Of a stretch of DNA of 64,000 bases, positions 1 to 20,861 are shown in pieces; within the stretch, counting starts at the first letter, position 1; the number at the start of each line of letters is the position of its first letter. The stretch lies in IMG/VR virus record IMGVR_UViG_3300027708_000015; one strand, written 5' to 3'. Under the pieces are notes generated by a model, which saw only the letters and a program-made list of their open reading frames with translations, ran no database searches and had not been told where the DNA came from. Both the position numbers and the translations under genes were made by a program. This stretch comes from a virus (taxonomy: Duplodnaviria > Caudoviricetes).

Positions 1-3000
1 TTACAGAAGCTAAATGCAAATAAACCTAATACTGCGCCCTATTATTTTAGTGACATGGTACCGTACGGTGCTAGTACAACTACAAATTTGGAAGTAGTTG
101 ATTATCGAATCAAAACATATCCTCTTACCTCTGTGTTCTCATTGGATGTTTTAAGTAATAAAGCTGTAGGTGTTTATCAAACAAAGATAGCAACCGGTAC
201 CAAATCACAGCTAGTACATGGGCGAGATTATACATTTAGCAATCAAGGATTTGTAGTAATTGATGATAGTGTATCGTTATCCAACGGAGATACAATTACC
301 ACAGTTGAATACGACAGCACAGATGGATGTTATATTCCAGCAACTCCTACCAAGCTAGGCATGTGGCCTGCATATGTTCCGCAAATCTATCTAGACACCA
401 CACTGGTTAATCCACAGAATGTAATACAAGGACACGACGGCAGTATTATTCTAGCTTATAATGACTTTAGAGATGATTTGATATTAGAATTAGAATTACG
501 TATATACAACAACATCAAGGTCAAATATGACCCTACTATTTTTGACAGTACAAATATAGTTCCTGGATATAATAGAACAAATGATTATTCTTTGTCAGAG
601 TTTAATCAAGTATTAGCCCCTGCATTCTATCAATGGTCGGGCTTGGTTGGTATTGATTTTACTTTGCCTTTGAACTACGATAGAGGAAATCAGTTTACAT
701 TCAACTACTCCCAGGATGTTGCTCCAAATCAATCTCCAACTCCTGGCTTCTGGAGAGGAATATATCGTTGGATGTTTGATACTGATCGTCCACATCTGTG
801 TCCGTGGGAAATGTTGGGGTTCAGTACAGAACCAAGTTGGTGGTCTAGTGTTTACGGTCCAGCGCCCTACACCAGCGACAATTTGGTATTATGGGACGAT
901 TTATCTACCGGCACTGTAAGAAAACCAGGCAGTGCGTCTGTAGTACTAAGCAAATATGCTAGACCCATATTAAAAGGGCACATTCCAGTTGACCAGGACG
1001 GACATTTATTAAGTCCTATACGTTGCGGATTAGCTCGGGGATCAGAAACACCAAGCATTGGTAATGATTTTGTGTTTGGTGATGTTAGCCCTGTAGAAGC
1101 AACATGGCGACGTAGTAGCTATTATCCATTTAGTGTAATAGTAGCCTCAATGTTGTTGACTCCCGCCAGCACATTTGGTCTGCTACTAGATCGATCAAGA
1201 ACAGTTCGAAATTTGGCCGGACAACTTGTTTACTCTGAAACAAATTTACGTATCAAACCCGCAGACGTAATGATTCCCAGCGTGTATTCTAGTGCAACTA
1301 GAGTACAAACTGCGGGCATTGTTAATTATATTGTTGACCTTATTTCAAATATTATTTTTAGTAATAATCAAGAATCATACAAGTCTTATCAATCAAACTT
1401 GGCTTTGCTAACTGCTCAGCTAAGTTATAGAGTGGGAGCATTTACTAATCAAGATCAATTTAATTTATTGTTAGAAAGTAAAACACCATCAGCAATTGGC
1501 AATGTTTTCATCCCACAAGAAAGTTATAAAATATTTTTAAATTCCTCTAGCCCCACACAGAAAATTACCTACAGTGGTGTGATAATTACCAAGTTATCTA
1601 CTGGATTTGAAATAAAAGGTTATAGTAAAACCCAACCTTACTTCAACTATTATGAGCATATTGAATCAGGAGTTACTATAAATGTTGGCGGAATAAGCGA
1701 AAGTGTAGTAACTTGGACTCGAGGCCAGCAGTATATTGTTGGACAAGTGGTTCAATACAACAACGTATATTATAGGACCAAAATTAAAAATACAGCAACA
1801 CTTGAATTTGAATCAAAATATTTTGTAGCATTGCCTAGTCTTCCTATAGTAGGCGGAGTAAGTGCAACATTTAGAGACAAGTGGAATCAAACTAGTGTTA
1901 AAGTAGCACCATATGGTAAACAGTTTTCAACAGTGCAGTCAGTGGTGGATTTCTTGTTGGGATATGAGCAGTATCTGATCAGTCAGGGCTTTGTCTTTAA
2001 TGATTTCAATAAAAAATTATCGTCAGTAGCTAATTGGTCTACTAGTGCTAAAGAATTCATGTTCTGGACCCTACAAAACTGGTCAAGCGGTAATACTGTA
2101 TGGACCGAATGGGCGCCAAATCAACCATATAACTACGGCACAATAGTGCGTTACAACGGCAGTTACTATAGTGCTCAATACAATATTCTTGCGTTGGGTC
2201 AGTTTGAATTTGAACAATGGACATTGTTACCTGGATTAAGCAATGTGGGAAGTAGTGTAATAAGTCTGAGTCCTGCAGCCAATGGTATAACTTTCAATAC
2301 TACTCTAGCGGTAGTGGACGATATTAAAAATCCATTCAACCGTTATGAAATATTCAAAGTAGACAGTACACCAATACACCCTAATGAACTAGACAGCTAT
2401 AGAATAGGCAATACAATAACATATTCCCCACGTACTGCTGATGGAATTTACTGTGCAAGTTTTTATCTAATACAAAACGAACATGTGGCGATTGTAGACA
2501 ACATGGATATATTCAACGATGTTATCTATAATCCCCCAAGCGGATATCGTAGAGATCGTATTAAACTTTCAGGATATGTTACAGAAGGTTGGTACGGCGG
2601 ATTAGATATTCCGGGATTTATCTTCGATGGTGCAAAAGTACAGGGTTGGCAGCCGTGGCAAGATTATAACATGGCCGATATTATCGCCTATCAAGGATAC
2701 TACTACAGTGCCAATTCGTTTATTGCAGGGTCTGCAACATTTGTGTCATCACAGTGGAATCGATTATCAAAGCAACCATCAGCACAACTACTGCCAAACT
2801 GGACCAATACAGCTACCCAGTTTACAGATTTTTACGGTCTTGACATTGATAATTTCAATACACAGCAACAGGTATTTGCACAACACCTAATTGGGTATCA
2901 AACTCGACAGTATCTGCATAATATCATACAAGATCCTGTAAGTGAATTTAAATTTTATCAAGGAATGATCCGAGATAAGGGCACTCAGAATGTACTAAAT

Positions 3001-6000
3001 CACTTGTTCGGAGTTCTCAATGCCGACAAAGTAGAGAGTCTGATGTTTTATGAAGAGTGGGCGATCCGTGTTGGACAGTACGGTGCTTCAAGTGCATTTG
3101 AGGATTTTGAAGTAATCATCGATCAAGCACAGTATAAAAATAATCCGCAGGGCTATTATCTAACAAATTCTTCAAAGTCTGATGTCAGCTATGTTATAAA
3201 TCAACTAGTACCTAATGATATCTATCTGAAACCGTTGGGATATAATAGTAAACCGTTTCCAGTTTTAGAAAAATCTAACCAACTACTGCGTAGTGCTGGG
3301 TATGTCAATCCAAAAGATATCACAATTCAGTTAGGCAGTCTTTCAGAGATAGTGAATTATAGTGTAGCCGCCTTGGCCAACGGACAGTATGTGTCTGTAG
3401 CATTTAGTGCCAACACTTGGAATGTTTACAGATTTACAGATTTACAGATTCGAGTACTGAATGTAACTTATGTGTTGGAAACAAAAACACTAACCATTAC
3501 TACACAAAATCTATTACCTCTCATGGCAGGAGATTATATCGGTATTGCGCAAGTTGCTAGCATTACAGGATTTTATCAAGTAGCCAGTGTATCATTGAAT
3601 TCATTCACAGTTGTCAGTGCATCGGCTTTGGTAGTGTCCGCGCCCTTCACACAATCCGGACAAGTTGTAGTCTATGCATTAACACCTCAACGTACCACAT
3701 CTATAGATACTCTAGATACAGTGTCTTTGACACATTTACAACCTGGAACATTGGTATGGACTGACGATTCGGGCAACGGCAAGTGGGCAGTATGGCAGTA
3801 CAATAGCGTGTACTCTACACAGAACATACCAGATGTTTCGCCAGCAACTAATTTTAACTTTGGTTCTAGTTTATCGATCAATAGTCAATCAACAATTTTA
3901 GCAGTCGGCGATAGTCAGGGAAGCCTACTGATGTATGACAAGGCAGGATCATCTGTTCCATGGATACGCCGAGGATCAATATCCGCACCGTTTGTGTCAA
4001 AAAGCGGTCCGATAAGTCTAAATCAACTAGCTACGATATCTGCACTGAGTGCCGACGGTACATGGCTAGTAACAGGAAGTCCTACTGCAGGATATGCATC
4101 AACCACGTATCGAGGTGTCTATAATAGCAGTTCAACCTACGCTATTAATAGTATAGTTTCTGTTGTAAATTCTACAAATAATTATTCTTATTATCAAGCC
4201 ATGAAACCGGTGCCAGCCAGCACTCCGCCCACTGATAGGAGTTATTGGTTTATATCTCCGTATATTCCAGTCAGCCAACTGCTAGGTACAGATTCTACAC
4301 TAGCAGGACAAGGCGTTGTCAGCATATACTTAAAAGACTCAAACAACAACTACAGTCTAGTTGACACTATTATCAGTCCGCTGCCAGCGGCTGGCGAGCA
4401 GTTTGGATCTAACATTGTGTTTGGCAACAACAGTCTTTATATAGGTGCTATTGGATATAATAGCGGCGCTGGCCGAGTATATAAATTATCATATATCACA
4501 ACACCACAAGTTACTACGCAGTACAATCCTGTAGGAAGCTCGGCAAGCACGTTAGCAGTCAGCACAACTAGCGGCATACGTCCTGGAATGATAGTACAAG
4601 GTACAGGATTTACTAAAGGCCAAACAGTACAGGCAGTGCTTACTACAACAACATTGCGGTTAAGCGGAAGCCCTGACACAGGAATTACACCTTCTGGAAT
4701 ACTTAATTTTGTAACCAAAAGTTGGACATATGATTGGAGTGAAAACTACATAGGAACCCCATCAAGTGCTTTGGGTTCTACAATAGCAATCAGTGCCGAT
4801 GCTACAACACTTGCAATTAAATCGATTGGCAAAGTCAACATTTATAAAAATACCGGCAGTGGTATGACCATGTTACCAGCAGTGCTAGGTAGCGATGCAT
4901 ATTTTGGGATGGGACTATCTGTGTCAGCAGACGGATCTTATATTGCTATTTCTAATGATACTGTTGGCCCTGTAAGCCAATCAGGCGGCGTGACGATATA
5001 TTATTATACTAATGGGGCCTATACTCAGTACCAAAGTTTGGTCAATCATCGGCCAGAGACTAATGGACTGTTTGGAAACAAATTAGCGTTCATGTCCGAC
5101 GACACGATTGTGGTATATAGCAAAAACGGTGATAGCCAGATCAGCACACCGTTTGATAATAATACAACAACATTTGATAAACGATCTACAAATTTTGTCA
5201 CACTAGAAGTTAACAGCGGTCGTGTTGATATCTATGACAGATATAAAACCAAATGGGTGTTTGGAGAAAGTCTAATATCGACCAATTTACCAAGTGACGG
5301 ATATGGAACAGGATTCGCAGTCGGAACAAATCAAGTTGTAATAAGTGCGCCAAACGCTACTGATCAAACTCTTGCATCGGGATTGGTATATAGTTACGGT
5401 AAGACAGCTGACGCATATACTTGGTCGCAGTATCAACAACAAGATTTAGTTGCTGATATCAGCAAAATTAAAAAAGCTTTCTTGTATAATAGAAAATTAG
5501 GAACCTTGGTAACTTATCTCGATATAATTGATCCGTTACAAGGAAAAATCGCTGGTCCTGCACAAGAGGAAATATCTTATCAAACTTTTTATGATCCTGC
5601 AAGTTATTCGTATAGTGATGGTACAACAGCCGCAACAGTTGATGTTGATGCGTTCTGGGAAGATCTGCCTATAGGACAGTTGTGGTGGAATTTGGCCACT
5701 ACAAAATTCTTGGAAAATAATTTTGAAGATCCGGCATATAGAACTAGTGCTTGGAATACCCTAGCAAAAGGGGCCAGTGTAGACATATACGAATGGGTAT
5801 CATCAAATTTATTACCAGCCAACTGGGATATTCAAGCAGACACTCCAGCTGGTTTAGCTAAGGGCATAAGTGGAAAGAGTCTATACGGCAATTCTGCATA
5901 TAGTGTAAAACAAAATTATGACAACATTAGCAAAACGTTTTACAGCACATACTATTACTGGGTTAAAAATAAACTAGTTGTTCCATCAAATGTAGCCGGA

Positions 6001-9000
6001 AGACACATGGCATCTCGTGATGTTGCATTATTAATAGCCAATCCGAGAGCTCAAGCATACACTTGTTTAGCTATAACTGGAGCAGACTCGTTTAGTTTAA
6101 TCAATGCTTCCCAATATCTAAAAAATACTGATGTTGTATTGGCCATTGAATACTGGACTATTGATAAAACAGATCAAAATGTACATAGCCAGTGGAAATT
6201 AATCAGTAATGATACATTGGTAAATCTTCCCTTGCATATTGAACGCAAGTGGATCGACAGTTTGTGCGGAGTTGACAGTGAAGGTCGTCTAGTCCCAGAT
6301 CCTCAGTTACCGGCTAAATTACGATACGGTATCGAAAATAGACCTCGTCAGGGTATGTTTGTCAATCGTATAGAAGCATTAAAACAATTTATAGAGCGTG
6401 TTAATCTTCTATTGATAGGATATCAGGTAACTGAATCTAAAGACATTACTCCGTTAGAAGGCTACGATCCTATACCAAATGTGTTGCATGGCCTGTATGA
6501 CAAGGCAGTTGACACTTATGCAGAGCTTGTATATGCTAATATCGGATCTTTTTCGTCTGCATCTGTTACCCCAGTCATTGTGTCCGGCAGTGTGGTAGGT
6601 ATCGTAATTATAAATTCTGGTAAGGGATATGTAAATGCTCCCTACATCACAATAGCAGGATCGGGCAAGGGTGCAGTGGTTCAATCAACAATCAATTCTC
6701 TGGGACAACTCACCGGCGCAAAAATAATCAACGGAGGAGAAGGTTATAATATCAATACACTATGCTCAATCCGTAGCTATTCAGTTCTAGTGGTAAGTGA
6801 TGAAACTGTAAACAACACTTGGAGTATATATTCTTATGACACTGTAACTAGTATCTATTCTAAAGTGTTGACACAGTCTTATGATGTTAGAAACTATTGG
6901 ACCTATGCTGATTGGTATGCCACCGGATACAGTCAATTTACTGCTCCGGATATCACTGTTCAAAATTTTGTAGATCTAAATACTGCTCAAGACACGTTCT
7001 TCAGATTAGCACGTAATGGAATAGAGCAACCTGGGCAATTGATCAAGGTACTCAACGGCAATGCTGGTAAATGGGTTTTATTGTACAGATACTCAACTAA
7101 AATTACAGTAGACTGGACTCAAAGCTATAGAGTGATAGGAATACAAGACGGTACTATACAGTTTAATAGCGATCTATACAAATTTGCCGGAACTGTTATC
7201 GGTTATGATTCTAACATTTTTGACACTGCTGACTTTGACGTGCAGGCCACTAAAGAATTAAGAATTATATTAAACACTATCAAGGACAAAATATTAATTG
7301 ATGATCTGAAACAGCAATATTTAGATTTATTTTTAAGCAGTTTACACTATGCTCACAGTGAACAACCTTTTATTGATTGGGCCTTCAAAACCAGTTTCAT
7401 CCGTGCAACTCACACAGTTGGCGCACTGAACCAACCTGTTAACTATCCTGTAGATAATCTAAGAAATTTCCAAGATTACGTTGCAGAAGTTAAACCTTAC
7501 AGAACTAAAGTTAGAGAGTATATAAGTCAATATACCGGAATAGACATTGATCAAAGTGCTGTTACAGATTTTGATTTGCAACCCAACTACTCGAATAATC
7601 AAATTAAACCAGTTGAGGCAGTGTATTCTAATAACAGTATTAGTGTAGTAGATCCTACAATACAGACTTATCCCTGGAAGTTCTGGTATGACAACGTTGG
7701 ATTCAGTATCACCGAAATATTGATAGTCAACGGCGGTAGTGGATATGCAAATATTCCGCAAGTGATAATCAGTGCACCAACTGGTTCCAATGCTGTACCT
7801 GCCACAGCAGTGGCTTATATTGCCAATGGACAAGTTAATAGAATAGTTTTAACCAATGTTGATCAGTACGGAAGTGCTGGCAAAGGTTACTTATCAGCCC
7901 CAACGATAACAATTGACGGCGGATTGGAAATTGGCGGAGTGCCTGCTACAGCAGTCGCAATCATTGGGAATGGACTAGTTCGTTCAAATCTTACAGAATT
8001 GCGATTTGATCGAGTCAATCAAACGTACTATTTGGCAAATTTACAGCAAATAGACAAATTTACTGGGTCGGGATCCAAGTTGCAGTTTGTGTTGACCTGG
8101 GCTCCGGACATACGTGTAGGACAATCTAGTGTTACGGTTAATAGCATTCCTGTTCTTAGAGAATTATATACTCTAAAAGTAGTTAAATCAACTGTGTCTG
8201 GCTACACACAATATACAGGAACAATCACGTTCGTAACAGCTCCGGCTCTAAATACGGCCATAGTGGTTACGTATAATAAATCTCAATCAGTATTGACAGC
8301 CGCTGATAGAATTCAATATTATTATAATCCCACAACCGGACAGTTAGGCAAAGATCTAACACAATTAATGACCGGTGTTGACTATGGCGGAGTTATAGTC
8401 AGTGGACTGGGATTCAACATTGCAGGCGGGTGGGGTGCTAGTCCGTATCTGACAGATTCGTGGGACAGCCGTCCTGTTACATTTAATGATTATGCAGTCC
8501 AAGTAGCTGGTAACACGCATGTATTCACATTGCCTTACACTCCGGCTACAGGCACATCAATTAATATATATTTTGCAAGACAGAAGAAGGTATCGTACGT
8601 GTCAGACGGTGCCAAATTGCTGTATGCGTATGATTCTGCATTACAGAATATTTCTGTAAATGTAGTGTCAACTAGTACAACATCTGCAGTTACTACGTCA
8701 TATATTACAGCAGAAGTAATCAGCGGAACAACTGTCAAAAGCGGCGGTTATACATTATTGGTTGCCGATACTACTGGAATAGTGTCGGGTATGATTGTCA
8801 AAGGCACAGGTTTTACAAAAAATCAAAAGGTTGTAAATGTAATAAATTCAACAACACTGACTATAGACAATGTGGCCGACGGATTTCCAGTAAACAGTGA
8901 ACCATTAACGTTTTCTAATTTGCCCGGTAGTTTTATATTGACAGTTGCCAGTACTGCTGGCTTAGCAATTGGAGATGTAGTTACAGCCTCTGGCATATAC

Positions 9001-12000
9001 AGCACAGCATTTGCTTACGGCACAACAATTACAAAAATTAATTCATCTAAGTCTGTAACCCTTAATCAGATTCTTTATGCGACACTTGCCGCTGGAACAA
9101 CTGTAACATTTACACAAAATCTTATACAACCTAATGATGTGGTAATCAACGCTTCAGGTACTGTTCAGCTGTTACAAGCCTATCCTGCAGGCAGTGTAAT
9201 CACTGTGGTCGGACAGCAACTTCCTGTAAGATTGGATGACCCCAATTACGGATTAGTAGCTACAAACAATTGGGTACCTGGCACACAATATGCTGTCAAC
9301 AACTTAGTATTGGTAGATGGCATCTCATATGTTTGTCGTAAAGTCAATACCAGCGGCACAAAATTTAATTTAGATTTTGCACTGGGATACTGGAGTTTGA
9401 TAAATTCCAATGCTATTATTCCAACGCCGGTTCTTGGAGTAAGTGTAATCACATCAGTTATAGAAGGCGGAGCTGGCGGTGCTAGTCTTTCTATTACCTT
9501 TGCTGGGTCAGTTGTAGGCGGCGAAGCAGCCACTATTGAAGACACTGTGCTCGATGGCGGCATTATAAATGATTCTCCTACCAATGTGATAGAAATACCT
9601 GCTACATTCACAGTATTAGAGGGAGATGAATTTATTCTAAGAGAAGCATCTAGTGATGGTTCAGTACCAACACCAGATGCAAACTATGACAGTAAAATCG
9701 ATGGTGGAAATTTAGCCTATTCTACTGCTACAGGTATAGCCGCAGATGATATCATTCTCGACGGAGACGGATTCGTAACCCCAACATCTAGTCCGGCCAC
9801 TGAAGAAGTGATGCCGGGACAAGTAGTAGATACTCTGGCAATCAAAGTGTATGACAAATCACCGTCCGGTGCCGCAAGCATTAAGGTTAACTCTTACTTG
9901 ACCGATGGCGTAAATAAAGTGTTTGCTATAGGGCAAACTCCAAACAGTCCTCGAGCTGTCATAGTGAAATTAGGCAGTAATATACAAACATACACGACAG
10001 ACTATACTGTTGATTATTCAAATAAACTAATACGTTTTAAAAATATTCCTACAGTAGGGCAGTCTGTCACTGTGTTTAGTATAGGGTTTAATGGAAAAAA
10101 CATTTTAGATCTTGACTATTTTATCGGCGACGGGACAACAACTGAATTTATAACAAGAGCTCCTTGGTTAACTTCTCTTACCCCGCTGGTTTATGTAAAT
10201 GGGGTAACAGCGGCAGTTGAGTTATTTCAAACTGATACTACTTATGCATTCTCTCATGCAGTCGGACTTAGATTTGTAACTCCACCTGCTATCGGAACAC
10301 TAATAAATTATATCATTGTTAGCGGAAGTCAACAGACTTTTGCAATTACAAAAACTGAAATAGTTAGTACGACTGGCACAAGCACTTACAAATTACAATA
10401 TCCAATAGGTAAATCTTTACCAAACGAAAGTAGTATGATTGTTAGAGTTGATCAATCAATACTGCAAGCACCAACTAACATATATTTCACTATCAGCAAT
10501 CTCAACTACAAATACACTGTTGATCCAGCTAAGGCATTGCCTTATTCAACTTCAATTGGCAATATATATGTGTATGCTGGCGGTAATCAGTTGGTGTTTG
10601 GCAACGATTACACAATAGATCCGTCAGGTATCTCAGTGACAATTACTGCAGATGTTTACACAACTTATGCAGGCAAACAACTAGTTGTAAGTATTATTTC
10701 AAATAATGGATATACATATAATCCTAATTCAAATGAAATAACTTTTGCGAGCGGAGTTATAGTCGGAAGCTCACAAACAGTTGAGGTAGTCAGCAACTAC
10801 TTGCATGAGACGTTGGACATACAACGTACCGATGTGCAGTATTCTGCTTCATATACATTGACTCCGGGAACTGTGGCCTTTTACCAATATAATGCAATCG
10901 GTGGTGGCCTGATTAGGCTTGATAGACCAGTAATTGATGCTGGATATGTATGGGTAATTAAAAATCTAGTTTTGTTATCTCCGGGAGCCGATTATAAACT
11001 CAATGACGATTTACAAAGTATTCGTTTGACGCAGCCAATAAGTCTATCTGATAATTTAGAAATTCTCACATTTAGTAGCAATGTACTTCCGTCGTCGGGA
11101 ATCGCATATATGCAGTTTAAAGACATGCTTAATAGAGTAACCTACAGACGACTAAATGCCAACAAGAAAACAAGTCTTGTGCAAGCATTGAAATGGAACG
11201 ATACACAAATAGTAGTAAGCGATGCGTCTGTACTAGATCAACCAAACGCCGCAAATAATAATCCCGGAGTAATAGAAATTCGAGGCGAACGCATAGAGTA
11301 TTTTCAAATAAACTATGCTACAAATACTCTGAGTCAACTGCGTAGGGGTACACTAGGAACAGGCGTTTATAATATGAATCTTGAAGGATCATTTGTACAG
11401 AATATTAGTTCAAGTGAAGCAATTCCCTACACAGATACTACTATCACTGGAACTATACTGTCTTCAGGACTTGGAGTTCCAAGAGTTACAGGATCTATTA
11501 TATCAACTACGACTAAAGTGGATCAGCCTATATCTAGTTTTTCTATCGAGTCAACAACTGGGTTATTAAAGGTAACAACAGGAAACTATTATGTTGGACA
11601 GGTTATAGCTGTGTCTGGCTTTCCGATCCATGCTAGTCTTACAGGCGTAACAGCTCTAAACTCAACTGGACAGTTTAGTTGTATTGCTTCTCCGACCTCA
11701 TTCTTAGTGGGTCAGTCAATTATTATCAACAGTTCTACAACTAATGCAATACTTTCTAATGTCAGCATAATTGGAACTTCCGGACAGTTTAGTTGTTTGT
11801 CAAGCCCTACTCCAATGATTGTTGGTCAACAAATAACTATGACAGGGCTAGTAGTTGTAACTCAATACCTATCAGGCGTAATTATTACTGATACCAATGG
11901 GGGTTTTAGTTGTACCTCTTCAACAGTGCTATTAGCTCCGGGACAAATTGTTACAATTTCTGGAACTTTTGGTTCAGGGGCCAGTGTTGGCAGCATAATT

Positions 12001-13428
12001 GACTATGCCAGTCCGTCAAGCTATACCATTACTGCTACCAACGGCAGAACTACATTTTCTCTAGCAAAGATTGGAGGCGGTCAGGTAACAACGACAGTGG
12101 GGATTCCGGCCAACCTAACATATGTGTTGACAGCTGGTTCAGGATCTGTTCAAAATTATGTAAATCCAACCACATATGTTATTAGTGAGACCGACGGATC
12201 AACAACATTTACTCTAAAAACTCTATCTGGTAATGCCTTAGTAACTACCCAAGGAATTCCGGCCACAGCCTCTACAATTCCTACCGGATTGAAACTAGTA
12301 TTGGTATCTGGTACTATTGCTGGATACTCAGGAACACAAACTAGGTATTATATTTCAGCTACTAATGGATCGACAAGATTTACATTGTCGTCAACTTATC
12401 CAGCAGTAACTCCTATAGTTACCACTCTAGGCAGTATGTATGGCCAACAGTATAGTCTGAGCGGAGCAGGATTTAACAATTATCTCAATCCCACAAACTA
12501 TTATGTAGTTGACACAAACGGAACAAATCTAATTACTTTGTCCACAGCACCAAATGGATCTCCGATTGCTTCTGCAGTGGGAACACCTTCGGGACTGACA
12601 GCCAATGTGGTTATCAGTATTGTAACTTTGAATAGCAACGATGGCTTATCTACAGGACAAAAATTGGTTGTTACAGGTGAGGGCGGCGGCGGCCTAAAAC
12701 CGGGATCCTATTATATTGTTAACCCATCTGTGGGTCCAAATCAAGTCACACTGGCCAGCAGTCTTGCTCTAGCACAAGCAGACAAACCTATTAACACTCT
12801 AACCAGTTCCACGCTATCAAATACCACATTCAGCTCAGGCGGGCAGGATATTGGTATAGGATTTGTCCCAGACAATGCTGATCAAATTGATGTATTTGTT
12901 GGCGGATACAATACCACAATATGGGAACCCAACACCAAATACAGTATAGGACAGCTTGTTTCAACAGGTCCTTATACCTATCGATGCATAGTAGACCATA
13001 CTAGTTCAACAGCATTTGGTAAAGATCTTGCCAACTGGTATTTCTTTGTAGAAAATACACGATTGAAGAAATCTTCCTACAGTATATTTGATGTAAATAA
13101 AGCTCCTTATAGCCCAGCCGGTGACAGAGATTTCCCAGCAGATTTTATTGTTGACGGTGTTACAGCAACCGTTACACTAACAAATCCGCTAAGTCTTGGC
13201 ACACAGGTTACTGTGATTAAGAAGACAGGTATTGCCTGGGACGGCAATAAAAATGCTCCAGTTAACATACTAAATGATAGTAGTGCTATTGCTAATTTTA
13301 TCAAGGCAGCTCCTGGAATTTGGTACACTGAATACAAACAAATAAGTAATAGTACAATCAAAGGAAATTTTGACAATACTACTGTGTTATTTGACAATAA
13401 TAATACAATAACATTCGATCAAGGATAA
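1..13428 (+). CDS. Giant modular virion structural protein (baseplate/tail-associated), 5'-truncated by the window edge, >4470 aa
   Basis: Frame +1 has no stop from base 1 (LQKLNANKPNTAPYYFSDM...), so the true start lies upstream. Contains FG-GAP-like propeller repeats (FGSSLSIN, FGSNIVFG, LGSTIAIS, FGMGLSVS, FGNKLAFM, YGTGFAVG), aromatic W-x4-5-Y-x2-G repeats resembling CBM5/12 modules, GDGTT..F repeats and many T/S/G-rich beta modules. It sits directly upstream of tail-fibre genes. Confidence 0.8.
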   Translation, partial: LQKLNANKPNTAPYYFSDMVPYGASTTTNLEVVDYRIKTYPLTSVFSLDVLSNKAVGVYQTKIATGTKSQLVHGRDYTFSNQGFVVIDDSVSLSNGDTITTVEYDSTDGCYIPATPTKLGMWPAYVPQIYLDTTLVNPQNVIQGHDGSIILAYNDFRDDLILELELRIYNNIKVKYDPTIFDSTNIVPGYNRTNDYSLSEFNQVLAPAFYQWSGLVGIDFTLPLNYDRGNQFTFNYSQDVAPNQSPTPGFWRGIYRWMFDTDRPHLCPWEMLGFSTEPSWWSSVYGPAPYTSDNLVLWDDLSTGTVRKPGSASVVLSKYARPILKGHIPVDQDGHLLSPIRCGLARGSETPSIGNDFVFGDVSPVEATWRRSSYYPFSVIVASMLLTPASTFGLLLDRSRTVRNLAGQLVYSETNLRIKPADVMIPSVYSSATRVQTAGIVNYIVDLISNIIFSNNQESYKSYQSNLALLTAQLSYRVGAFTNQDQFNLLLESKTPSAIGNVFIPQESYKIFLNSSSPTQKITYSGVIITKLSTGFEIKGYSKTQPYFNYYEHIESGVTINVGGISESVVTWTRGQQYIVGQVVQYNNVYYRTKIKNTATLEFESKYFVALPSLPIVGGVSATFRDKWNQTSVKVAPYGKQFSTVQSVVDFLLGYEQYLISQGFVFNDFNKKLSSVANWSTSAKEFMFWTLQNWSSGNTVWTEWAPNQPYNYGTIVRYNGSYYSAQYNILALGQFEFEQWTLLPGLSNVGSSVISLSPAANGITFNTTLAVVDDIKNPFNRYEIFKVDSTPIHPNELDSYRIGNTITYSPRTADGIYCASFYLIQNEHVAIVDNMDIFNDVIYNPPSGYRRDRIKLSGYVTEGWYGGLDIPGFIFDGAKVQGWQPWQDYNMADIIAYQGYYYSANSFIAGSATFVSSQWNRLSKQPSAQLLPNWTNTATQFTDFYGLDIDNFNTQQQVFAQHLIGYQTRQYLHNIIQDPVSEFKFYQGMIRDKGTQNVLNHLFGVLNADKVESLMFYEEWAIRVGQYGASSAFEDFEVIIDQAQYKNNPQGYYLTNSSKSDVSYVINQLVPNDIYLKPLGYNSKPFPVLEKSNQLLRSAGYVNPKDITIQLGSLSEIVNYSVAALANGQYVSVAFSANTWNVYRFTDLQIRVLNVTYVLETKTLTITTQNLLPLMAGDYIGIAQVASITGFYQVASVSLNSFTVVSASALVVSAPFTQSGQVVVYALTPQRTTSIDTLDTVSLTHLQPGTLVWTDDSGNGKWAVWQYNSVYSTQNIPDVSPATNFNFGSSLSINSQSTILAVGDSQGSLLMYDKAGSSVPWIRRGSISAPFVSKSGPISLNQLATISALSADGTWLVTGSPTAGYASTTYRGVYNSSSTYAINSIVSVVNSTNNYSYYQAMKPVPASTPPTDRSYWFISPYIPVSQLLGTDSTLAGQGVVSIYLKDSNNNYSLVDTIISPLPAAGEQFGSNIVFGNNSLYIGAIGYNSGAGRVYKLSYITTPQVTTQYNPVGSSASTLAVSTTSGIRPGMIVQGTGFTKGQTVQAVLTTTTLRLSGSPDTGITPSGILNFVTKSWTYDWSENYIGTPSSALGSTIAISADATTLAIKSIGKVNIYKNTGSGMTMLPAVLGSDAYFGMGLSVSADGSYIAISNDTVGPVSQSGGVTIYYYTNGAYTQYQSLVNHRPETNGLFGNKLAFMSDDTIVVYSKNGDSQISTPFDNNTTTFDKRSTNFVTLEVNSGRVDIYDRYKTKWVFGESLISTNLPSDGYGTGFAVGTNQVVISAPNATDQTLASGLVYSYGKTADAYTWSQYQQQDLVADISKIKKAFLYNRKLGTLVTYLDIIDPLQGKIAGPAQEEISYQTFYDPASYSYSDGTTAATVDVDAFWEDLPIGQLWWNLATTKFLENNFEDPAYRTSAWNTLAKGASVDIYEWVSSNLLPANWDIQADTPAGLAKGISGKSLYGNSAYSVKQNYDNISKTFYSTYYYWVKNKLVVPSNVAGRHMASRDVALLIANPRAQAYTCLAITGADSFSLINASQYLKNTDVVLAIEYWTIDKTDQNVHSQWKLISNDTLVNLPLHIERKWIDSLCGVDSEGRLVPDPQLPAKLRYGIENRPRQGMFVNRIEALKQFIERVNLLLIGYQVTESKDITPLEGYDPIPNVLHGLYDKAVDTYAELVYANIGSFSSASVTPVIVSGSVVGIVIINSGKGYVNAPYITIAGSGKGAVVQSTINSLGQLTGAKIINGGEGYNINTLCSIRSYSVLVVSDETVNNTWSIYSYDTVTSIYSKVLTQSYDVRNYWTYADWYATGYSQFTAPDITVQNFVDLNTAQDTFFRLARNGIEQPGQLIKVLNGNAGKWVLLYRYSTKITVDWTQSYRVIGIQDGTIQFNSDLYKFAGTVIGYDSNIFDTADFDVQATKELRIILNTIKDKILIDDLKQQYLDLFLSSLHYAHSEQPFIDWAFKTSFIRATHTVGALNQPVNYPVDNLRNFQDYVAEVKPYRTKVREYISQYTGIDIDQSAVTDFDLQPNYSNNQIKPVEAVYSNNSISVVDPTIQTYPWKFWYDNVGFSITEILIVNGGSGYANIPQVIISAPTGSNAVPATAVAYIANGQVNRIVLTNVDQYGSAGKGYLSAPTITIDGGLEIGGVPATAVAIIGNGLVRSNLTELRFDRVNQTYYLANLQQIDKFTGSGSKLQFVLTWAPDIRVGQSSVTVNSIPVLRELYTLKVVKSTVSGYTQYTGTITFVTAPALNTAIVVTYNKSQSVLTAADRIQYYYNPTTGQLGKDLTQLMTGVDYGGVIVSGLGFNIAGGWGASPYLTDSWDSRPVTFNDYAVQVAGNTHVFTLPYTPATGTSINIYFARQKKVSYVSDGAKLLYAYDSALQNISVNVVSTSTTSAVTTSYITAEVISGTTVKSGGYTLLVADTTGIVSGMIVKGTGFTKNQKVVNVINSTTLTIDNVADGFPVNSEPLTFSNLPGSFILTVASTAGLAIGDVVTASGIYSTAFAYGTTITKINSSKSVTLNQILYATLAAGTTVTFTQNLIQPNDVVINASGTVQLLQAYPAGSVITVVGQQLPVRLDDPNYGLVATNNWVPGTQYAVNNLVLVDGISYVCRKVNTSGTKFNLDFALGYWSLINSNAIIPTPVLGVSVITSVIEGGAGGASLSITFAGSVVGGEAATIEDTVLDGGIINDSPTNVIEIPATFTVLEGDEFILREASSDGSVPTPDANYDSKIDGGNLAYSTATGIAADDIILDGDGFVTPTSSPATEEVMPGQVVDTLAIKVYDKSPSGAASIKVNSYLTDGVNKVFAIGQTPNSPRAVIVKLGSNIQTYTTDYTVDYSNKLIRFKNIPTVGQSVTVFSIGFNGKNILDLDYFIGDGTTTEFITRAPWLTSLTPLVYVNGVTAAVELFQTDTTYAFSHAVGLRFVTPPAIGTLINYIIVSGSQQTFAITKTEIVSTTGTSTYKLQYPIGKSLPNESSMIVRVDQSILQAPTNIYFTISNLNYKYTVDPAKALPYSTSIGNIYVYAGGNQLVFGNDYTIDPSGISVTITADVYTTYAGKQLVVSIISNNGYTYNPNSNEITFASGVIVGSSQTVEVVSNYLHETLDIQRTDVQYSASYTLTPGTVAFYQYNAIGGGLIRLDRPVIDAGYVWVIKNLVLLSPGADYKLNDDLQSIRLTQPISLSDNLEILTFSSNVLPSSGIAYMQFKDMLNRVTYRRLNANKKTSLVQALKWNDTQIVVSDASVLDQPNAANNNPGVIEIRGERIEYFQINYATNTLSQLRRGTLGTGVYNMNLEGSFVQNISSSEAIPYTDTTITGTILSSGLGVPRVTGSIISTTTKVDQPISSFSIESTTGLLKVTTGNYYVGQVIAVSGFPIHASLTGVTALNSTGQFSCIASPTSFLVGQSIIINSSTTNAILSNVSIIGTSGQFSCLSSPTPMIVGQQITMTGLVVVTQYLSGVIITDTNGGFSCTSSTVLLAPGQIVTISGTFGSGASVGSIIDYASPSSYTITATNGRTTFSLAKIGGGQVTTTVGIPANLTYVLTAGSGSVQNYVNPTTYVISETDGSTTFTLKTLSGNALVTTQGIPATASTIPTGLKLVLVSGTIAGYSGTQTRYYISATNGSTRFTLSSTYPAVTPIVTTLGSMYGQQYSLSGAGFNNYLNPTNYYVVDTNGTNLITLSTAPNGSPIASAVGTPSGLTANVVISIVTLNSNDGLSTGQKLVVTGEGGGGLKPGSYYIVNPSVGPNQVTLASSLALAQADKPINTLTSSTLSNTTFSSGGQDIGIGFVPDNADQIDVFVGGYNTTIWEPNTKYSIGQLVSTGPYTYRCIVDHTSSTAFGKDLANWYFFVENTRLKKSSYSIFDVNKAPYSPAGDRDFPADFIVDGVTATVTLTNPLSLGTQVTVIKKTGIAWDGNKNAPVNILNDSSAIANFIKAAPGIWYTEYKQISNSTIKGNFDNTTVLFDNNNTITFDQG

Positions 13429-13431: not shown

Positions 13432-15945
13432 ATGACACAACAGATAATTGCCACAGGCTCAGCGGCAAATGACGGTACTGGGGATACACTTCGAAGTGCT
13501 GGTACAAAGATAAACGCTAATTTTTCGGAATTGTATGCTAACATTTATACATTGCCAACTGCACAACCTCCAGCAAACAATTTAGGTATACCGGTTGCAG
13601 GAAGACTAGGCGGAGTAATACCAGACGGTAATACGATTACTATCACAAACGGAGTTATCAGTGCTGTGTCGAGCGCGGCATCAGCTGGTGCATTAACCGG
13701 TACAGCGTTAAAATCAACAGTGGTCAGCTCAAGTCTAACCAGTGTTGGCACGCTGACAAGCCTAACAGTGAGTGGCACAACCACTTTGTCTACATCGCTT
13801 AACGGTTTGTTAAAAAGTACAAATGGTCTAGTATCCTCAGCAGTTGCAGGTACAGATTATCTAGTTCGAGGAAGCCTCAGCGTAGCAGTTGCTAGTAATA
13901 GTGGAGGCGGCAATTTAACTTACAGCAACGGTATCTTTACATTTACACCTCCGCTGATTCCAAATTACTCAGTAACAACTGCCACACCTAGCGGTGATGG
14001 CTCACTAAGCATAAGCGGAACAGTGTTTACATACACACCTTATAGTTTGCAACCAGCTACTACAGCTACACTAGGAGGTGTCAGAGTTGACGGTAGTAGC
14101 GTCACTATCAATAACGGTGTAATCAGTGTTAGTACAGGTCTAAGCGGCAGCATAAGTTTCAAAGGAACATGGAATGCAAGTACCAACACTCCTACCCTCA
14201 GCAGTAACCAAGTGGGCGCAAACGCAGGTTGGATGTACATTGTGGGCACCAGCGGAACCCAAAACTTAGGAGCTGGATCGTTTACCTATCAAGCAAGCGA
14301 TTTGCTAGTGTATGATGGTGTAAACTGGATTGATATTGCATCAAATAATGGTGTGGTATCATTCAATTCTAGAACCGGCGCAGTATTGTTGACCAGCAAT
14401 GACGTTACATCGGCATTGGGATACACTCCATTACGAACCAGCGACCTAAGTTCATATTTAACAGGGATTAGTCAAAGTCAAGTTACATCAGCATTGGGAT
14501 ATACCCCACTCCAGGCAAGTAGCCTAAGCATTGTAACAAATGCAGCCAGCGGATCTGGCAGTTTAAGTTATTCAAGCGGTGTATTTACATTTACACCTTA
14601 TGCTTTGCCAACAGCAAGCACCGCGGTGCTCGGTGGTGTTAAGATTGACAACAGTACAATCACAATCAGCAATGGAGTTATTTCTGTCAGCAGTGCGTTA
14701 ACCAGTGCCACACAATTTAAAGGCAACTGGGATGCAACTAATAACTCTCCGTTATTGGGTGGAAGTTTACCCGCTGGAGTTGTTGCTGGATGGGAATATA
14801 TTGTTAGCGTAGCTGGAACCAGAGATATAGGCAATGGAAGTACAGCATATTCTATTGGAGACTTGGTGATATATGATGGAGCCAAGTGGGTACGCATACC
14901 TGGCGGCAACGCTGTTACATCGTTTAATACACGTCAAGGTGCAATTTCATTGACTAGTAGTGATGTTACTACTGCACTGGGTTTTACACCTAGTGCATTA
15001 ATTGGTTCTTCTAGTATAACTACACTGGGCACCATTGCTACCGGAATTTGGAACGGTAGTGTGATTGCAGGACAGTACGGCGGCACTGGAGTAGCCAATA
15101 CTGGCAAGACAATTACGCTGGGCGGCAACTTAACTACTGCTGGTATTTTTACCACATCCGGCGCATTTACAACCACACTGACTGCCACATCTGATACCAC
15201 ATTGACTTTGCCAACTACTGGCACACTGGTCACACGAGCAGGCACAGAAACATTAACTAATAAAACACTTGGAGCCACCACAATTGCCGGCAGTTTAATT
15301 CCTGATACTGATATTACCTACGATCTCGGTTCCACCTCTTATAGATTCAGAGACCTATATCTAAGTGGAAGCTCAATTAAATTAGGCAGTGCAACTATAA
15401 CTTCTTCTGGTACCACATTGTCCATACCAGCATCAAGCACGTTGACAACGCCGGTAATTGCTAGTAATATTACAACGGCCAGTACAAGTTTTGATCTTGT
15501 TAATACAACTGCTACTACAGTAAACTTTGCTGGTGCGGCAACTGTTGCATTAAAGATTGGTGCCAGCGGTGCACCTATTACAGGATTTGCCGCAACAGCT
15601 ACATCAACAAGTACAGCCGCAAGTTTAGGTTACTTAGGTATGCCACAGCAGAGTAAATCAGGTGCCTACACAACAGTCATTGGTGATGCAGGTAAACACA
15701 TTTATGTAACAGCTACGGCAACTATTACCATTGACTCTAATGCCAACGTGGCTTATCCAATAGGCACAACTATTGCATTTATTGCGGCAGCTGGCGCAAC
15801 AGTGACTATCGCAATTACTTCAGACACAATGTATTTAGGTGGTACTGGCACAACAGGATCACGCACACTGGCTGCATATGGTATGGCCACTGCGGTCAAG
15901 GTTACTAGCACAAGCTGGTTTATCAACGGCACAGGATTAACATAA
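13432..15945 (+). CDS. Tail fibre / baseplate-attached fibre protein with internal tandem repeats
   Basis: N-terminal IATGSAANDGTGDTLRSAGTKINANFSELY resembles the T4 gp9/gp10-type attachment motif. Two FKGxW(N/D)A...YDG..W...VxSFNxRxGA...DVTxALGxTP repeats and a DITYDLGSTSYRFRDLYL motif are present. Confidence 0.75.
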   Translation: MTQQIIATGSAANDGTGDTLRSAGTKINANFSELYANIYTLPTAQPPANNLGIPVAGRLGGVIPDGNTITITNGVISAVSSAASAGALTGTALKSTVVSSSLTSVGTLTSLTVSGTTTLSTSLNGLLKSTNGLVSSAVAGTDYLVRGSLSVAVASNSGGGNLTYSNGIFTFTPPLIPNYSVTTATPSGDGSLSISGTVFTYTPYSLQPATTATLGGVRVDGSSVTINNGVISVSTGLSGSISFKGTWNASTNTPTLSSNQVGANAGWMYIVGTSGTQNLGAGSFTYQASDLLVYDGVNWIDIASNNGVVSFNSRTGAVLLTSNDVTSALGYTPLRTSDLSSYLTGISQSQVTSALGYTPLQASSLSIVTNAASGSGSLSYSSGVFTFTPYALPTASTAVLGGVKIDNSTITISNGVISVSSALTSATQFKGNWDATNNSPLLGGSLPAGVVAGWEYIVSVAGTRDIGNGSTAYSIGDLVIYDGAKWVRIPGGNAVTSFNTRQGAISLTSSDVTTALGFTPSALIGSSSITTLGTIATGIWNGSVIAGQYGGTGVANTGKTITLGGNLTTAGIFTTSGAFTTTLTATSDTTLTLPTTGTLVTRAGTETLTNKTLGATTIAGSLIPDTDITYDLGSTSYRFRDLYLSGSSIKLGSATITSSGTTLSIPASSTLTTPVIASNITTASTSFDLVNTTATTVNFAGAATVALKIGASGAPITGFAATATSTSTAASLGYLGMPQQSKSGAYTTVIGDAGKHIYVTATATITIDSNANVAYPIGTTIAFIAAAGATVTIAITSDTMYLGGTGTTGSRTLAAYGMATAVKVTSTSWFINGTGLT

Positions 15946-16646
15946 TGACTGGTATCATGATGCACAATATGAGCCACAAGGCTGGCCCGGCTCCTGCCAC
16001 AGTGGTTTATAATCTTGATGCGGCTAATTATTCTGCTATGCCTGCGAATGGAGTAACTATAACTGGCAGTTACACATTAACAGTCAGTAACACAAATTCA
16101 AGAATTAGTTGGAACGCGGTCAATGGCGGAGTGTTTAGAAGTGCCTATATTGGAGATGCCATGGGTGATTATATGTCCGGCGGGCCAAACTACAGCAACG
16201 GCAATCAAAGTTTTACAATATTCATAGCTTATAAGTTAGCTACATCAAGCTCAGGACGGTTGCTTAACACAGGCAACGAAGCCAATGGCGATTTTGTCAT
16301 GGGCGCATACAACGGTCGACCAAAAGTTTATTTTACTGCCGCTCAAAATATCAATTTGAGTGGTGCTACCGCAGACACAGTTTGGCATTTGGACTGGGCA
16401 ACATTTAACAAGACCACAGGTGTGGCTAACCTATATTCAGCTACCAGCGTACAGCCCACGACCTATACGTATACAGCAACCAATACTGCCATACGAGGCC
16501 CTAACCAATTGAGATTGTTTAATAGGCAAAGCGGTACTGAGGCACATCCAGCTGACATTGGCGTGATAAAGGTGTGGGATGGTGCCTTAACTTTGGCTCA
16601 GGTTCAGACTGAATATGCGGCCTATAAAACCCGATTTGGATATTAA
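15945..16646 (+). CDS. Concanavalin A/LamG-like lectin domain protein, probable receptor-binding partner of the upstream fibre
   Basis: VVYNLDAANYS start, SFTIFIAY, WHLDWATF and ADIGVIKVWDGALTLAQVQTEY motifs typical of LamG folds; start overlaps the fibre stop (TAATG). Confidence 0.65.
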   Translation: MTGIMMHNMSHKAGPAPATVVYNLDAANYSAMPANGVTITGSYTLTVSNTNSRISWNAVNGGVFRSAYIGDAMGDYMSGGPNYSNGNQSFTIFIAYKLATSSSGRLLNTGNEANGDFVMGAYNGRPKVYFTAAQNINLSGATADTVWHLDWATFNKTTGVANLYSATSVQPTTYTYTATNTAIRGPNQLRLFNRQSGTEAHPADIGVIKVWDGALTLAQVQTEYAAYKTRFGY

Positions 16647-16666
16647 ACTAGCACATTATGAAAACA

Positions 16667-16674
16667 GCTAAATA
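16667..16674 (+). promoter_or_regulatory. T4-like late promoter motif (GCTAAATA)
   Basis: Intergenic TAAATA core 20 nt before the 16695 start. Confidence 0.55.
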
Positions 16675-16694
16675 CAAGATAAAGAGAGTTAACT

Positions 16695-17300
16695 ATGCAT
16701 AAAGATCAAACTGGAGTCCATATTGAAGGTCATATCAAGATATATGATCCTGAATCTAAAGAAGTTTACATCAATAAACGCAATGCAATCCACTACGAAA
16801 ATATGAGTATTGCTTTGGCCAATACCATGATCAACAACGGTCAAGGCTACATATATCAAATGGCCTTTGGCAACGGTGGAACCAGCATTGATCCTACCGG
16901 AATCATTACATATCTAACTCCTAATTCAAGCGGAACTAATGCCAGTCTTTACAATCAAACATATACCAAAGTTGTAGATGGCACAGCCAGTACCAACATG
17001 GACGCAACACGCAATTTCACAGAAGTGCGTCATGTAACTGGAACAAACTACAGCGATATATTTGTGACCTGCTTGTTGGATTATGGCGAGCCTAGCGGTC
17101 AATCTGCTTTCGACACCACAATCAACGGCGAAACAACATTTGTATTTGACGAACTAGGGTTACAAAGTTACAGCCCAACAGGCAATAATTTATTACTAAC
17201 ACATGTGATATTCCATCCTGTGCTAAAGAGTTTAAATCGTTTGATACAGATCGATTACACAGTGCGTATACAAAGCCTTACTGGCTTGGTAAATGTTTAA
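16695..17300 (+). CDS. Conserved virion structural protein (tail/baseplate-associated)
   Basis: 201-aa ORF in the structural operon, preceded by a GCTAAATA late-like motif; FDELGL...THVIFHPVLKSLNRLIQIDYTVRI C-terminus. Confidence 0.55.
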   Translation: MHKDQTGVHIEGHIKIYDPESKEVYINKRNAIHYENMSIALANTMINNGQGYIYQMAFGNGGTSIDPTGIITYLTPNSSGTNASLYNQTYTKVVDGTASTNMDATRNFTEVRHVTGTNYSDIFVTCLLDYGEPSGQSAFDTTINGETTFVFDELGLQSYSPTGNNLLLTHVIFHPVLKSLNRLIQIDYTVRIQSLTGLVNV

Positions 17301-17310
17301 GGGGCTATAG

Positions 17311-19500
17311 ATGACATACACAGTTTCATTTACTGACTCAACAAATCCTGCCAAACCTCCGATTACAGTTGCAGACGGTGCGCTAAACAATCAAACCAGT
17401 TTGTCACTGGTAGGTCAAAATTATTCAGGATATGGGCCTGTAATAGCAGGAAACTTTTTACATCTGTTAGAAAATTTTGCCAGTGGTATTGCTCCTATCA
17501 ATCCTGTTCAAGGACAATTATGGTACGACACCAATGTAAATTCCAACATACTTAGAGTATACAACGGAACTCAATGGATAGAAGCAGGAGCACTGAAAAA
17601 AGCCACAGCAGCCAATCAACCTAGTGTTTCGGCCAGTGTAGCAGGAGACCTATGGGTCGACACTACCAACAGTCAACTTTATCTATTTTCAGGTGCAAGC
17701 TGGTTATTGGTTGGTCCCACATACAGTGCAGGATTGCAAACAGGTCCAATAGTAGAGTCTATAGTTGATACTTCGAACATAAGCCACCCAGTTATTTCGA
17801 TGTATGTAACTAGTACAACAGACAATATATCTTATCGACTTGCAATAATAAGCAAAGACGCATTTACTCCCAAGTCTAGCATCATCGGATATCAAACAAT
17901 CAAAGAAGGTGTAAACTTATATTCAAACAGTTTAACCAAAGATTCCGCCACTATCTGGGGAACTGCTGACGTGGCCAACAATTTACTGGTTGGTTCCAGC
18001 ACAGTGCCAGCGGCAAATTTTTTAAGATCGGATGTAACCAGCACTTCAAACAGTGTTCTAAATATTAGAAATGCAGGCGGCTTGAGTATAGGAAATGATC
18101 TCAGTTTCAATATTTCACAAGGCCCAACGGCCTTTACGCTATTTTCTAAAAATACCACAAGCAGTATTGAATTCAGTGTAAACGGAAGTACGCTGTTACA
18201 TTTAGATCCATCTGGATATGTGGGCGTGGGTGCAGGAAATACATCCCCTGCCACCGCTCTCAGCGTAGCAGGAGTTGTAACTTCGGGTATAGCAGGTGCA
18301 CCTGGCGGACTGATAGTGACTGATGGAGCAAGTCCTATACCAACTACAGTGTTAACTGTCAGCACTACCGGTGGAATCACCACGTCTCTGAACATGACCT
18401 CTACAGGCAATTTGTCAGTGGGCGGTGTAGTCACAGTTGGATCTGGATCAGCTGGCGGCGCAGTAATATTACCGGCACCTTCAGTTTCGGTTCCGCTATT
18501 TGATATAGGTTCGGCCAGTCAGCCTTTTAGAAACATATATGCCAACACATTTACCGGCAGTTTTACCGGAACATTCGTTGGCTCAGTAACAGGTAATGCC
18601 AGCGGCACCGCTACCGCACTACAAAATCCTACACAATTTTCCATTACTGGCGACGTAATTACCACTGCTCCAATCAATTTTACTGGAAATTCAGGACCAG
18701 CTACATTAACTACCTTGGTCAGCAACACAATGATTTCGGGAAAGACGGCAGCTACCGGAGCCAGTGCAACAGATCAAATGTTGGTATTGCAAACAAATGC
18801 CAACACTTCAAATCTAGTCAGCATGACAAGACAGACTTTTCTATCCGGGGTAGGCATTTTTGCAATACCGGCTGGAGTTATGATGCCGTTTGCTGGCCCA
18901 GTGTCTGCAATTCCTGTGGGATGGTTGTTATGTGATGGCAGTGAGATCAGCACAGCTACATACAATCAATTGTTTTTAGCGATAGGGTTTGTGTACAAGG
19001 CACAAATAAATCTATCGGGCGTAAACACGTTTGCTCTTCCGGATATGAGGGGTCGCATGCCGTTGGGATTAACCAACATGAACAACTATGGAAACATTCC
19101 TGGATTTACTCAAGCTGTCAACAGTAGTGGACAAACGGTTAATACAGGCGGCCAGCGCGGCACAGTGACAGGAGTGATAACACAAAGTGCAAATCAAACT
19201 CCAGCATCTATACTAGGAGCGGTTGGTGGATCCGACGGAACAGTACTATCAGTTGGCCAGATTCCCCAGCACAAACATAAACTAAGTACTACCAATGCTC
19301 AATACTATGCTCCGGGTGTAAATGGAGGATCTCCAGACACTAATGCTTCTCAAGGATACAGCATACCGCCAGGCGGAACAGGTTACGGATTGACCAATAC
19401 CGGAGATATGACAACTGGTGGTGCCGGTGATAGTGTAAACTTGATAAATCCTTTTATGGCAGTTAACTATATAATCTTTACTGGTGCAGGACTAAGCTAA
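17311..19500 (+). CDS. Short tail fibre-like protein with phage tail-collar domain
   Basis: IPAGVMMPFAGPVSAIPVGWLLCDGSEIS...YNQLFLAIG...FALPDMRGRMPLG is a clear tail-collar domain; C-terminal HKH and NPFMAVNYII motifs. Confidence 0.85.
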   Translation: MTYTVSFTDSTNPAKPPITVADGALNNQTSLSLVGQNYSGYGPVIAGNFLHLLENFASGIAPINPVQGQLWYDTNVNSNILRVYNGTQWIEAGALKKATAANQPSVSASVAGDLWVDTTNSQLYLFSGASWLLVGPTYSAGLQTGPIVESIVDTSNISHPVISMYVTSTTDNISYRLAIISKDAFTPKSSIIGYQTIKEGVNLYSNSLTKDSATIWGTADVANNLLVGSSTVPAANFLRSDVTSTSNSVLNIRNAGGLSIGNDLSFNISQGPTAFTLFSKNTTSSIEFSVNGSTLLHLDPSGYVGVGAGNTSPATALSVAGVVTSGIAGAPGGLIVTDGASPIPTTVLTVSTTGGITTSLNMTSTGNLSVGGVVTVGSGSAGGAVILPAPSVSVPLFDIGSASQPFRNIYANTFTGSFTGTFVGSVTGNASGTATALQNPTQFSITGDVITTAPINFTGNSGPATLTTLVSNTMISGKTAATGASATDQMLVLQTNANTSNLVSMTRQTFLSGVGIFAIPAGVMMPFAGPVSAIPVGWLLCDGSEISTATYNQLFLAIGFVYKAQINLSGVNTFALPDMRGRMPLGLTNMNNYGNIPGFTQAVNSSGQTVNTGGQRGTVTGVITQSANQTPASILGAVGGSDGTVLSVGQIPQHKHKLSTTNAQYYAPGVNGGSPDTNASQGYSIPPGGTGYGLTNTGDMTTGGAGDSVNLINPFMAVNYIIFTGAGLS

Positions 19501-20840: not shown

Positions 20841-20853
20841 CAGCTTAAAATAT

Positions 20854-20861
20854 GATAAATA
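20854..20861 (+). promoter_or_regulatory. T4-like late promoter motif (GATAAATA)
   Basis: Intergenic, upstream of 20888. Confidence 0.55.

Follow-up and report, generated by a model that had tools for sequence, protein, structure and literature searches.

A 64,000-nucleotide stretch of the Caudoviricetes record IMGVR_UViG_3300027708_000015 (hereafter the window) begins within the gene of a giant virion structural protein, and a run of eight short modules near the 3' end of this gene raises the question of how the encoded chain folds. Positions 11530-12624 on the + strand, corresponding to residues 3844-4208 of the part of the open reading frame (ORF) inside the window, encode four N-terminal half-modules (A1 to A4) followed by four C-terminal half-modules (B4 to B1). 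Are A and B parts of one domain and, if so, which A pairs with which B? A first-pass annotation made from the sequence letters had read the order as recursive insertion, each copy of a small β-domain sitting in the same loop of the previous copy. Profile searches, structure predictions and a survey of relatives indicate that the region is very probably a four-level self-nest of one barrel domain, A1(A2(A3(A4B4)B3)B2)B1.

All eight peptide strings quoted in that annotation are found in frame 1 of 11530-12612. We searched the six-frame translation of the whole window with family-wide hidden Markov models (HMMs) of the two halves, for whose refinement about 150 different proteins had supplied 254 A and 271 B halves. 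This yielded exactly four A and four B halves, all in the giant ORF and in the order AAAABBBB, with independent E-values (iE) of 6e-5 to 4e-13 for the A halves and about 1e-14 for the B halves. The three-stranded half A1 (11530-11637, residues 3844-3879, iE 6e-5), assigned to the outermost, level-1 barrel, is followed by A2 (11638-11751, residues 3880-3917, iE 8e-8), A3 (11752-11868, residues 3918-3956, iE 9e-13) and A4 (11869-11988, residues 3957-3996, iE 4e-13), assigned to the level-2, level-3 and innermost level-4 barrels. A4 abuts B4 (11989-12141, residues 3997-4047, iE 6e-15), the C-terminal half of the innermost barrel. The halves assigned to the outer barrels follow as B3 (12142-12309, residues 4048-4103, iE 6e-15), B2 (12310-12468, residues 4104-4156, iE 2e-14) and B1 (12469-12624, residues 4157-4208, iE 2e-14). 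The end of B1, residue 4208 at nucleotide 12624, lies 12 nucleotides past the end given earlier (12612).

Successive A halves are separated by just 3-9 amino acids, so no B half is concealed between them, and A4|B4 is the sole contiguous A|B junction, resembling the common single AB unit. The order A1A2A3A4-B4B3B2B1 with only the innermost pair contiguous therefore stands as first described. At every level the insertion site is the same: strand 3 (GQ..t.sG) precedes it, strand 4 (G.i.gY) follows it, and the linkers are short. In a BLOSUM62 self dot-plot, a check that the annotation had proposed, A copies match A and B copies match B with no similarity from A to B. Since the copies are 20-48% identical to each other and the nest shows no DNA-level repeat of note, they are old rather than recent.

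Structure prediction places these halves in barrels. AlphaFold2 run on residues 3825-4290 with an alignment of seven natural sequences (orthologues) gave one good model, with a mean predicted local distance difference test score (pLDDT) of 73.4, a predicted template modelling score (pTM) of 0.59 and a local pLDDT of 76-90 over the nest; in model 1 the A1 strands are E18-25, E31-34 and E44-49. The good model, whose numbering starts at residue 3825, was compared with 48,161 PDB chains in an exhaustive structural search. Contiguous PDB barrels of 80-95 residues align ~70-78 residues onto it with a root mean square deviation (rmsd) of 2.5-3.6 Å. Their aligned ranges fall into four classes, 128..222 (A4+B4), 91..279 (A3+B3), 52..330-332 (A2+B2) and 13-22..383-385 (A1+B1), beside two stray rows at 52..375 and 62..279.

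A second AlphaFold2 run covered the inner two levels (residues 3914-4106) and drew on 18 further natural AABB segments of different proteins (19 in total), in an alignment free of artificial gaps that might bias the outer pairing. All five models reached pLDDT 91.5-92.9 and pTM 0.77, with six strands per unit. The same PDB barrels land either on 40..132 (A4B4) or on 1..190, and because just 67-81 residues align in the latter case, that range can only represent A3 and B3 around the insert. No range class of the A3+B4 or A4+B3 type occurs among the structural alignments of either model. From these ranges the outer domains are predicted to be discontinuous, with N- and C-terminal segments around a complete inner domain forming one fold. 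Host and insert are copies of one domain family, as all halves match the same HMMs and the same PDB barrels fit inner and outer units, and the predicted depth is four levels with insertion always in the same loop. The models thus bear out the four barrels A4/B4, A3/B3, A2/B2 and A1/B1 that the annotation had expected, as judged by structural alignment ranges. A Foldseek search against the PDB returned no match at E<=0.001, as expected for a discontinuous domain order.

The relatives of the unit follow what may be called a bracket grammar. A scan of 1.84 billion representative proteins returned 167 clusters at E<=1e-3, and most database homologues match precisely the A4B4 stretch as a single domain. 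When the A and B hits are written as strings of opening and closing brackets, 129 of 140 non-redundant homologues are balanced. The forms include AB, tandem ABAB..., AABB, AAABBB, ABAAABBB, AAAABBBB (the giant-protein family and the relative P0013), A5B5 (P0026), A6B5ABB (P0010, depth 6) and the interleaved AABABB and AAABABBB. Nesting depth, which the annotation had suggested comparing among homologues, thus ranges from 1 to at least 6 (depth 2 in seven proteins, 3 in four, 4 in two, 5 in one and 6 in one). Among the 24 nested proteins, defined as those with any AA or BB adjacency, 15 have as many A as B halves versus 4.0 expected, and none of 200,000 permutations of the B counts reached 15. 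Most exceptions to balance were explained on inspection by truncated ORFs, B halves split into two hits or sub-threshold A halves. An N-terminally truncated ORF among them is missing exactly the upstream A halves, and P0011 reaches 8+8 and P0028 becomes balanced once A halves slightly under the threshold are counted.

These strings bear on a reading in which A and B are two unrelated tandem arrays, each folding by itself, for example as a β-solenoid or a trimeric fibre segment, and meeting only at the A-B junction. Four A followed by four B is, taken alone, what two such arrays would give, and short Thr/Ser/Gly-rich repeats are common in phage fibres. Independent arrays would not yield the bracket grammar, however, which makes them unlikely. 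No other form is nearly as common as the contiguous AB unit, a single barrel in the models; no full-length protein with only A or only B halves was found among the homologues, and the two counts match far beyond chance. In addition, interleaved strings exist, and the models join the outer halves into the same barrel fold. We consider the two-array reading very improbable and largely refuted.

The composition of the giant protein also invites the suspicion that the pattern is a structurally meaningless chance or low-complexity effect in a Thr/Ser/Gly-rich sequence. Its biased composition would allow this, and tblastn with a low-complexity filter found no match for two queries in the cultured phages of INPHARED, a result possibly owing to the filter. 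On the other hand, family HMM matches of 1e-5 to 1e-15 are confined to the nest in the six-frame translation, the 167 database clusters share the unit, conservation in six orthologues follows the region position for position, and the fold is predicted confidently in the two-level model. A chance effect is thereby refuted, with next to no probability left to it.

The order of pairing is the harder question. The halves may be complementary and yet pair in parallel, first A with first B, or by domain swapping between neighbouring baseplate subunits. Such pairing predicts equal A and B counts too, and in the virion the protein probably forms oligomers. Several points weigh against nested pairing and in part lend themselves to this alternative. 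Only one of the five models of the first run was good, the other four reaching pLDDT 39-51 on the seven-sequence alignment. The assignment of pairs relies on where the structural matches start and stop aligning rather than on contacts or coordinates, and at Z 5-6.7 these matches are middling and point to a widespread barrel fold instead of a homologue. Moreover, only monomers were modelled, and pairing of halves between subunits in the assembled baseplate is compatible with them. Partner tests that use sequence only are weak. A mirror-tree comparison of nested and parallel order from BLOSUM scores gave no clear preference in most proteins, with P0011 alone favouring nesting (r 0.60, p~0.03), and covariation partner matching trained on 185 contiguous units gave combined Z values of 0.46, 2.35 and 2.77 depending on the number of column pairs. 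Level orthology between the three-level P0047 and the five-level P0026, mapped by eye, gave a tie and was not used.

Against parallel or swapped pairing stands, first, the innermost A|B junction, whose linker of 0-8 amino acids is the same as in single units. The innermost pair must therefore be intramolecular, which brings the end of the next A half and the start of the next B half together, and so onward outward in shells. Second, similarity peaks at the inner levels among A and B halves alike, which favours nested over parallel order: A3-A4 (48%) is the closest A pair, B4-B3 (44%) is the closest B pair, and A1 and B1 are the most diverged. Third, the model ranges are nested. Finally, in P0011, the deepest clean case with six outer levels, covariation matching puts the nested order at rank 1-2 among 720 under two of its three settings. 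For nested over parallel order the evidence is weaker, yet it points one way, and we regard parallel or swapped pairing as improbable. The residual doubt about the four-level self-nest lies with the predictions and with the range end-points. The proposal that each copy was inserted in the same loop of the previous one agrees with the junction, always between strands 3 and 4, and with the nested ranges of the models.

What is the unit itself? In the AlphaFold2 models it is a six-stranded β-barrel of ~85-95 residues. Eight units from six proteins match no Pfam family, PF16190 (E1_FCCH) included, even at E<=10, and searches of the PDB by sequence, with one sequence or with a 100-unit profile, gave no significant relative. 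The best fold matches to both contiguous and split barrels are EF-Tu domain 2, E1 FCCH and FNR-type FAD barrels at Z 5-6.7. On the two-level model, EF-Tu domain 2 in 5i4q_C aligns over 72 residues (Z 6.6, rmsd 2.5 Å) and the UBA1 FCCH domain 4p22_B over 80 residues (Z 6.4, rmsd 2.9 Å); the latter scores Z 6.4-6.5 across both models. ESM Atlas neighbours comprise unnamed Uroviricota clusters and one cluster labelled E1_FCCH (TM 0.34, feature score 0.89). Like 4p22_B and 9mc4_A (Z 5.5-5.8), this labelled cluster is in the range of common-fold matches. Lipoyl-type BSH domains of efflux adaptors (4tko_B, 3lnn_B and 8zar_A, Z 4.8-5.3) score below the EF-Tu, FCCH and FNR barrels. No RNA polymerase chain occurs among the 50 structural matches listed, and there is no sequence match to SBHM domains. 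Similar barrels are found on phage tail parts at Z 5.2-6.6, namely lambda gpJ (490-564), phi92 endosialidase (255-338), Chi and JBD30 tail-tip/baseplate proteins and the Mystique tail tube (103-180), and a further one in the N4 tail. The likeness between predicted and known barrels names a common fold, not a relative of the unit.

The 4+4 order is kept residue for residue in five orthologues of the giant protein (46-70% identity). Three of these, P0006-P0008 (5,390-5,430 amino acids), carry an additional domain of ~80 amino acids inside B4 (P0006:4880-4985, aligned to window position ~12070). It abounds in G.G.GA / G.GY motifs, has no Pfam family that we could find and interrupts the innermost barrel after the fifth strand and before the sixth. 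With it the nest has a fifth level, made of another type of domain and placed in another loop.

Directly 3' of the nest, a conserved small module at 12625-12855 (+, residues 4209-4285) lies outside it and escapes the A and B models. It carries a unit-like GQ..V.G / YY.V motif, has a weak B-like match only, is modelled at pLDDT 43-67 in four-level model 1 and is 65% identical between two orthologue clades. About a dozen proteins of unrelated length match only this module and the residues that follow (query 337-460).

The nest sits in an ORF that is open in frame 1 of the + strand from 1 to 13428 (13.4 kb), has no 5' end in the window and comprises the last 4,475 codons of the gene for this giant virion structural protein. 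The full-length protein has 5,323 amino acids, and an identical copy (P0003) is encoded on a 93-kb contig. In a PHROG profile search it matches phrog_10938 'virion structural protein' (E 6e-211) over its N-terminal two thirds, with the nest region outside this match, and its N-terminus matches a baseplate wedge/tail-fibre connector PHROG. Pfam finds solely CBM5/12 (PF02839, E 4e-14) in the whole protein, in four stretches. The best of these carbohydrate-binding type stretches is at 12922-13014 (+, residues 4308-4338), and the others also lie elsewhere in the protein, none inside residues 3844-4208. Further repeat families are present as modules of the G.MIV.GTGF..GQ.V type and as NSG.GY / NGG.GY modules, which match 'head closure Hc2' and baseplate wedge PHROGs; together with CBM5/12, sites of these families within 1-13428 include residues ~1530-1580, ~2890-3060 and ~2170-2260.

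Tail-fibre and baseplate-like genes lie downstream of the giant gene, and a T4-type DNA polymerase is also encoded in the window. The family matches agree with a T4-like myovirus as the source phage. The run of tail-fibre or baseplate-like genes at 13432-23492 (+) encodes products of 837, 729, 446 and 491 amino acids that share an N-terminal module (phrog_14394/15511) and have diverse C-termini. By these sequence features, the run looks like a cassette of alternative fibres.

Beyond the giant-protein family, the nest appears in another virion protein. P0013 (1,438 amino acids) is a T4 gp18-like tail sheath protein (Phage_sheath_1C; phrog_10581, E 1e-208; PDB gp18 match at 446-649) and has a four-level AAAABBBB nest at residues 246-589, in the N-terminal, outward-facing and protruding part of the sheath. 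In two large relatives, P0009 (3,607 amino acids) and P0028 (2,806 amino acids), the strings point to five or six outer shells around several inner units, some in tandem and some nested. They may form branched trees of depth ~7-8, where balance is reached only if weak A hits count. P0009 also has a match to Pfam Mtd_N (tropism determinant).

The annotation had called this mode of repeat growth unusual. It is rare but not unprecedented, since Si3 of cyanobacterial RNA polymerase is built in the same way (PMC10895346, PMC13114784). In the crystal structure of the T. elongatus enzyme, SBHM-2 to -5 are discontinuous, with distant chain segments folded around inner SBHMs (PMC10895346), and a 2026 survey of ECOD (2.7 million domains, 48,551 insertion events) singled out the six-level nest of Si3 as the extreme (PMC13114784). 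Si3 lies in the trigger loop of the β' subunit (RpoC2) of cyanobacterial and plastid RNA polymerase and, like the nest described here, consists of a small β-domain inserted into its own copies. It forms an elongated appendage (150 x 50 Å, seven SBHMs), and the shape that we propose below for the phage nest is alike. The domain families appear to differ, with no sequence relation found, the phage unit being nearer to EF-Tu-domain-2, FCCH and FNR-type barrels. The phage nest also belongs to a virion protein instead of a polymerase, and among its relatives the depth varies from 1 to at least 6, with branching strings.

The structurally closest families and other phage proteins offer partial parallels. 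E1 FCCH (PF16190) and EF-Tu domain 2 are the best structural matches to the unit, though with no Pfam match. FCCH is itself an inserted domain, and we know of no self-nesting in either family. The tail decoration barrels of gpJ, endosialidase, Chi, JBD30 and Mystique have the same size and barrel shape as the unit and are inserted or appended surface modules on the tail; that of phi92 endosialidase is an insertion like the nest units, and a related endosialidase barrel has been described as sugar-binding. Unlike the nest units, they are single copies, and with no sequence similarity to the unit found, the likeness is by fold only. In the contractile sheath protein gp18 of T4, domain I lies inside domain II, which lies inside domain III. 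Successive insertion there likewise produces a protruding surface part, and P0013 is a gp18-like protein with a nest of its own; the nested domains of gp18, however, have different folds and are not copies of one domain. We found no paper on nested barrels in phage fibres or sheaths.

How might such a chain be laid out? It would begin barrel 1 with three strands (A1), do the same for barrels 2, 3 and 4, then complete barrel 4 with B4 and return via B3, B2 and B1, so that the last half opened is the first closed. The loop joining strands 3 and 4, at the centre of each copy, would hold the next copy. Since three strands per half is an odd number, this loop would be at the pole opposite the domain termini, and the barrels should stack end to end. 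Stacked in this way, they would form an out-and-back arm roughly 10 nm long, with both chain ends emerging at its base and two covalent linkers at each joint. The linear, telescoping arm of the first-pass annotation and the stiffness of a straight arm would follow from the topology of three strands per half and from analogy. An arm of this kind could be mounted at a single site on the surface of a large virion protein, here a giant protein of the baseplate region and in P0013 the tail sheath, and change in length by whole units.

The arm would probably serve to reach or bind the host-cell surface, or act as a spacer. A surface, host-facing role fits because the nest of P0013 is in the protruding part of a tail sheath, because P0006-P0008 carry their ~80-amino-acid domain inside the innermost barrel, the expected tip, and because the giant protein carries CBM5/12 modules. 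Going further, the unannotated ~85-amino-acid barrel could be a general arm-building module of phage virions that inserts itself at one fixed loop and reaches six to perhaps eight levels in relatives (P0010 with A6B5ABB, P0011 with about 8+8, and P0009/P0028), a generalization to which we give an even chance. If it is true, some of these nests would be as deep as or deeper than the six-level extreme of the survey (PMC13114784), and evolution could adjust the length of the arm in baseplate, fibre and sheath proteins.

Recursive self-insertion has been documented in detail for essentially one system, the Si3 of cyanobacterial RNA polymerase. Our models predict a wiring like that of Si3 in an apparently unrelated, unnamed barrel family on phage virion proteins. 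Self-nesting is common among the relatives of the unit, and in their strict grammar each N-terminal half is closed by a C-terminal one. Their varied depths provide a natural series for studying the folding and evolution of nested proteins. The nest accounts for part of the 'dark' sequence in giant phage structural proteins and cautions annotators and domain-calling programs against reading runs of half-domains as two families of repeats. As a principle for design, it suggests a stiff surface arm of adjustable length that would keep both of its chain ends together at the base.

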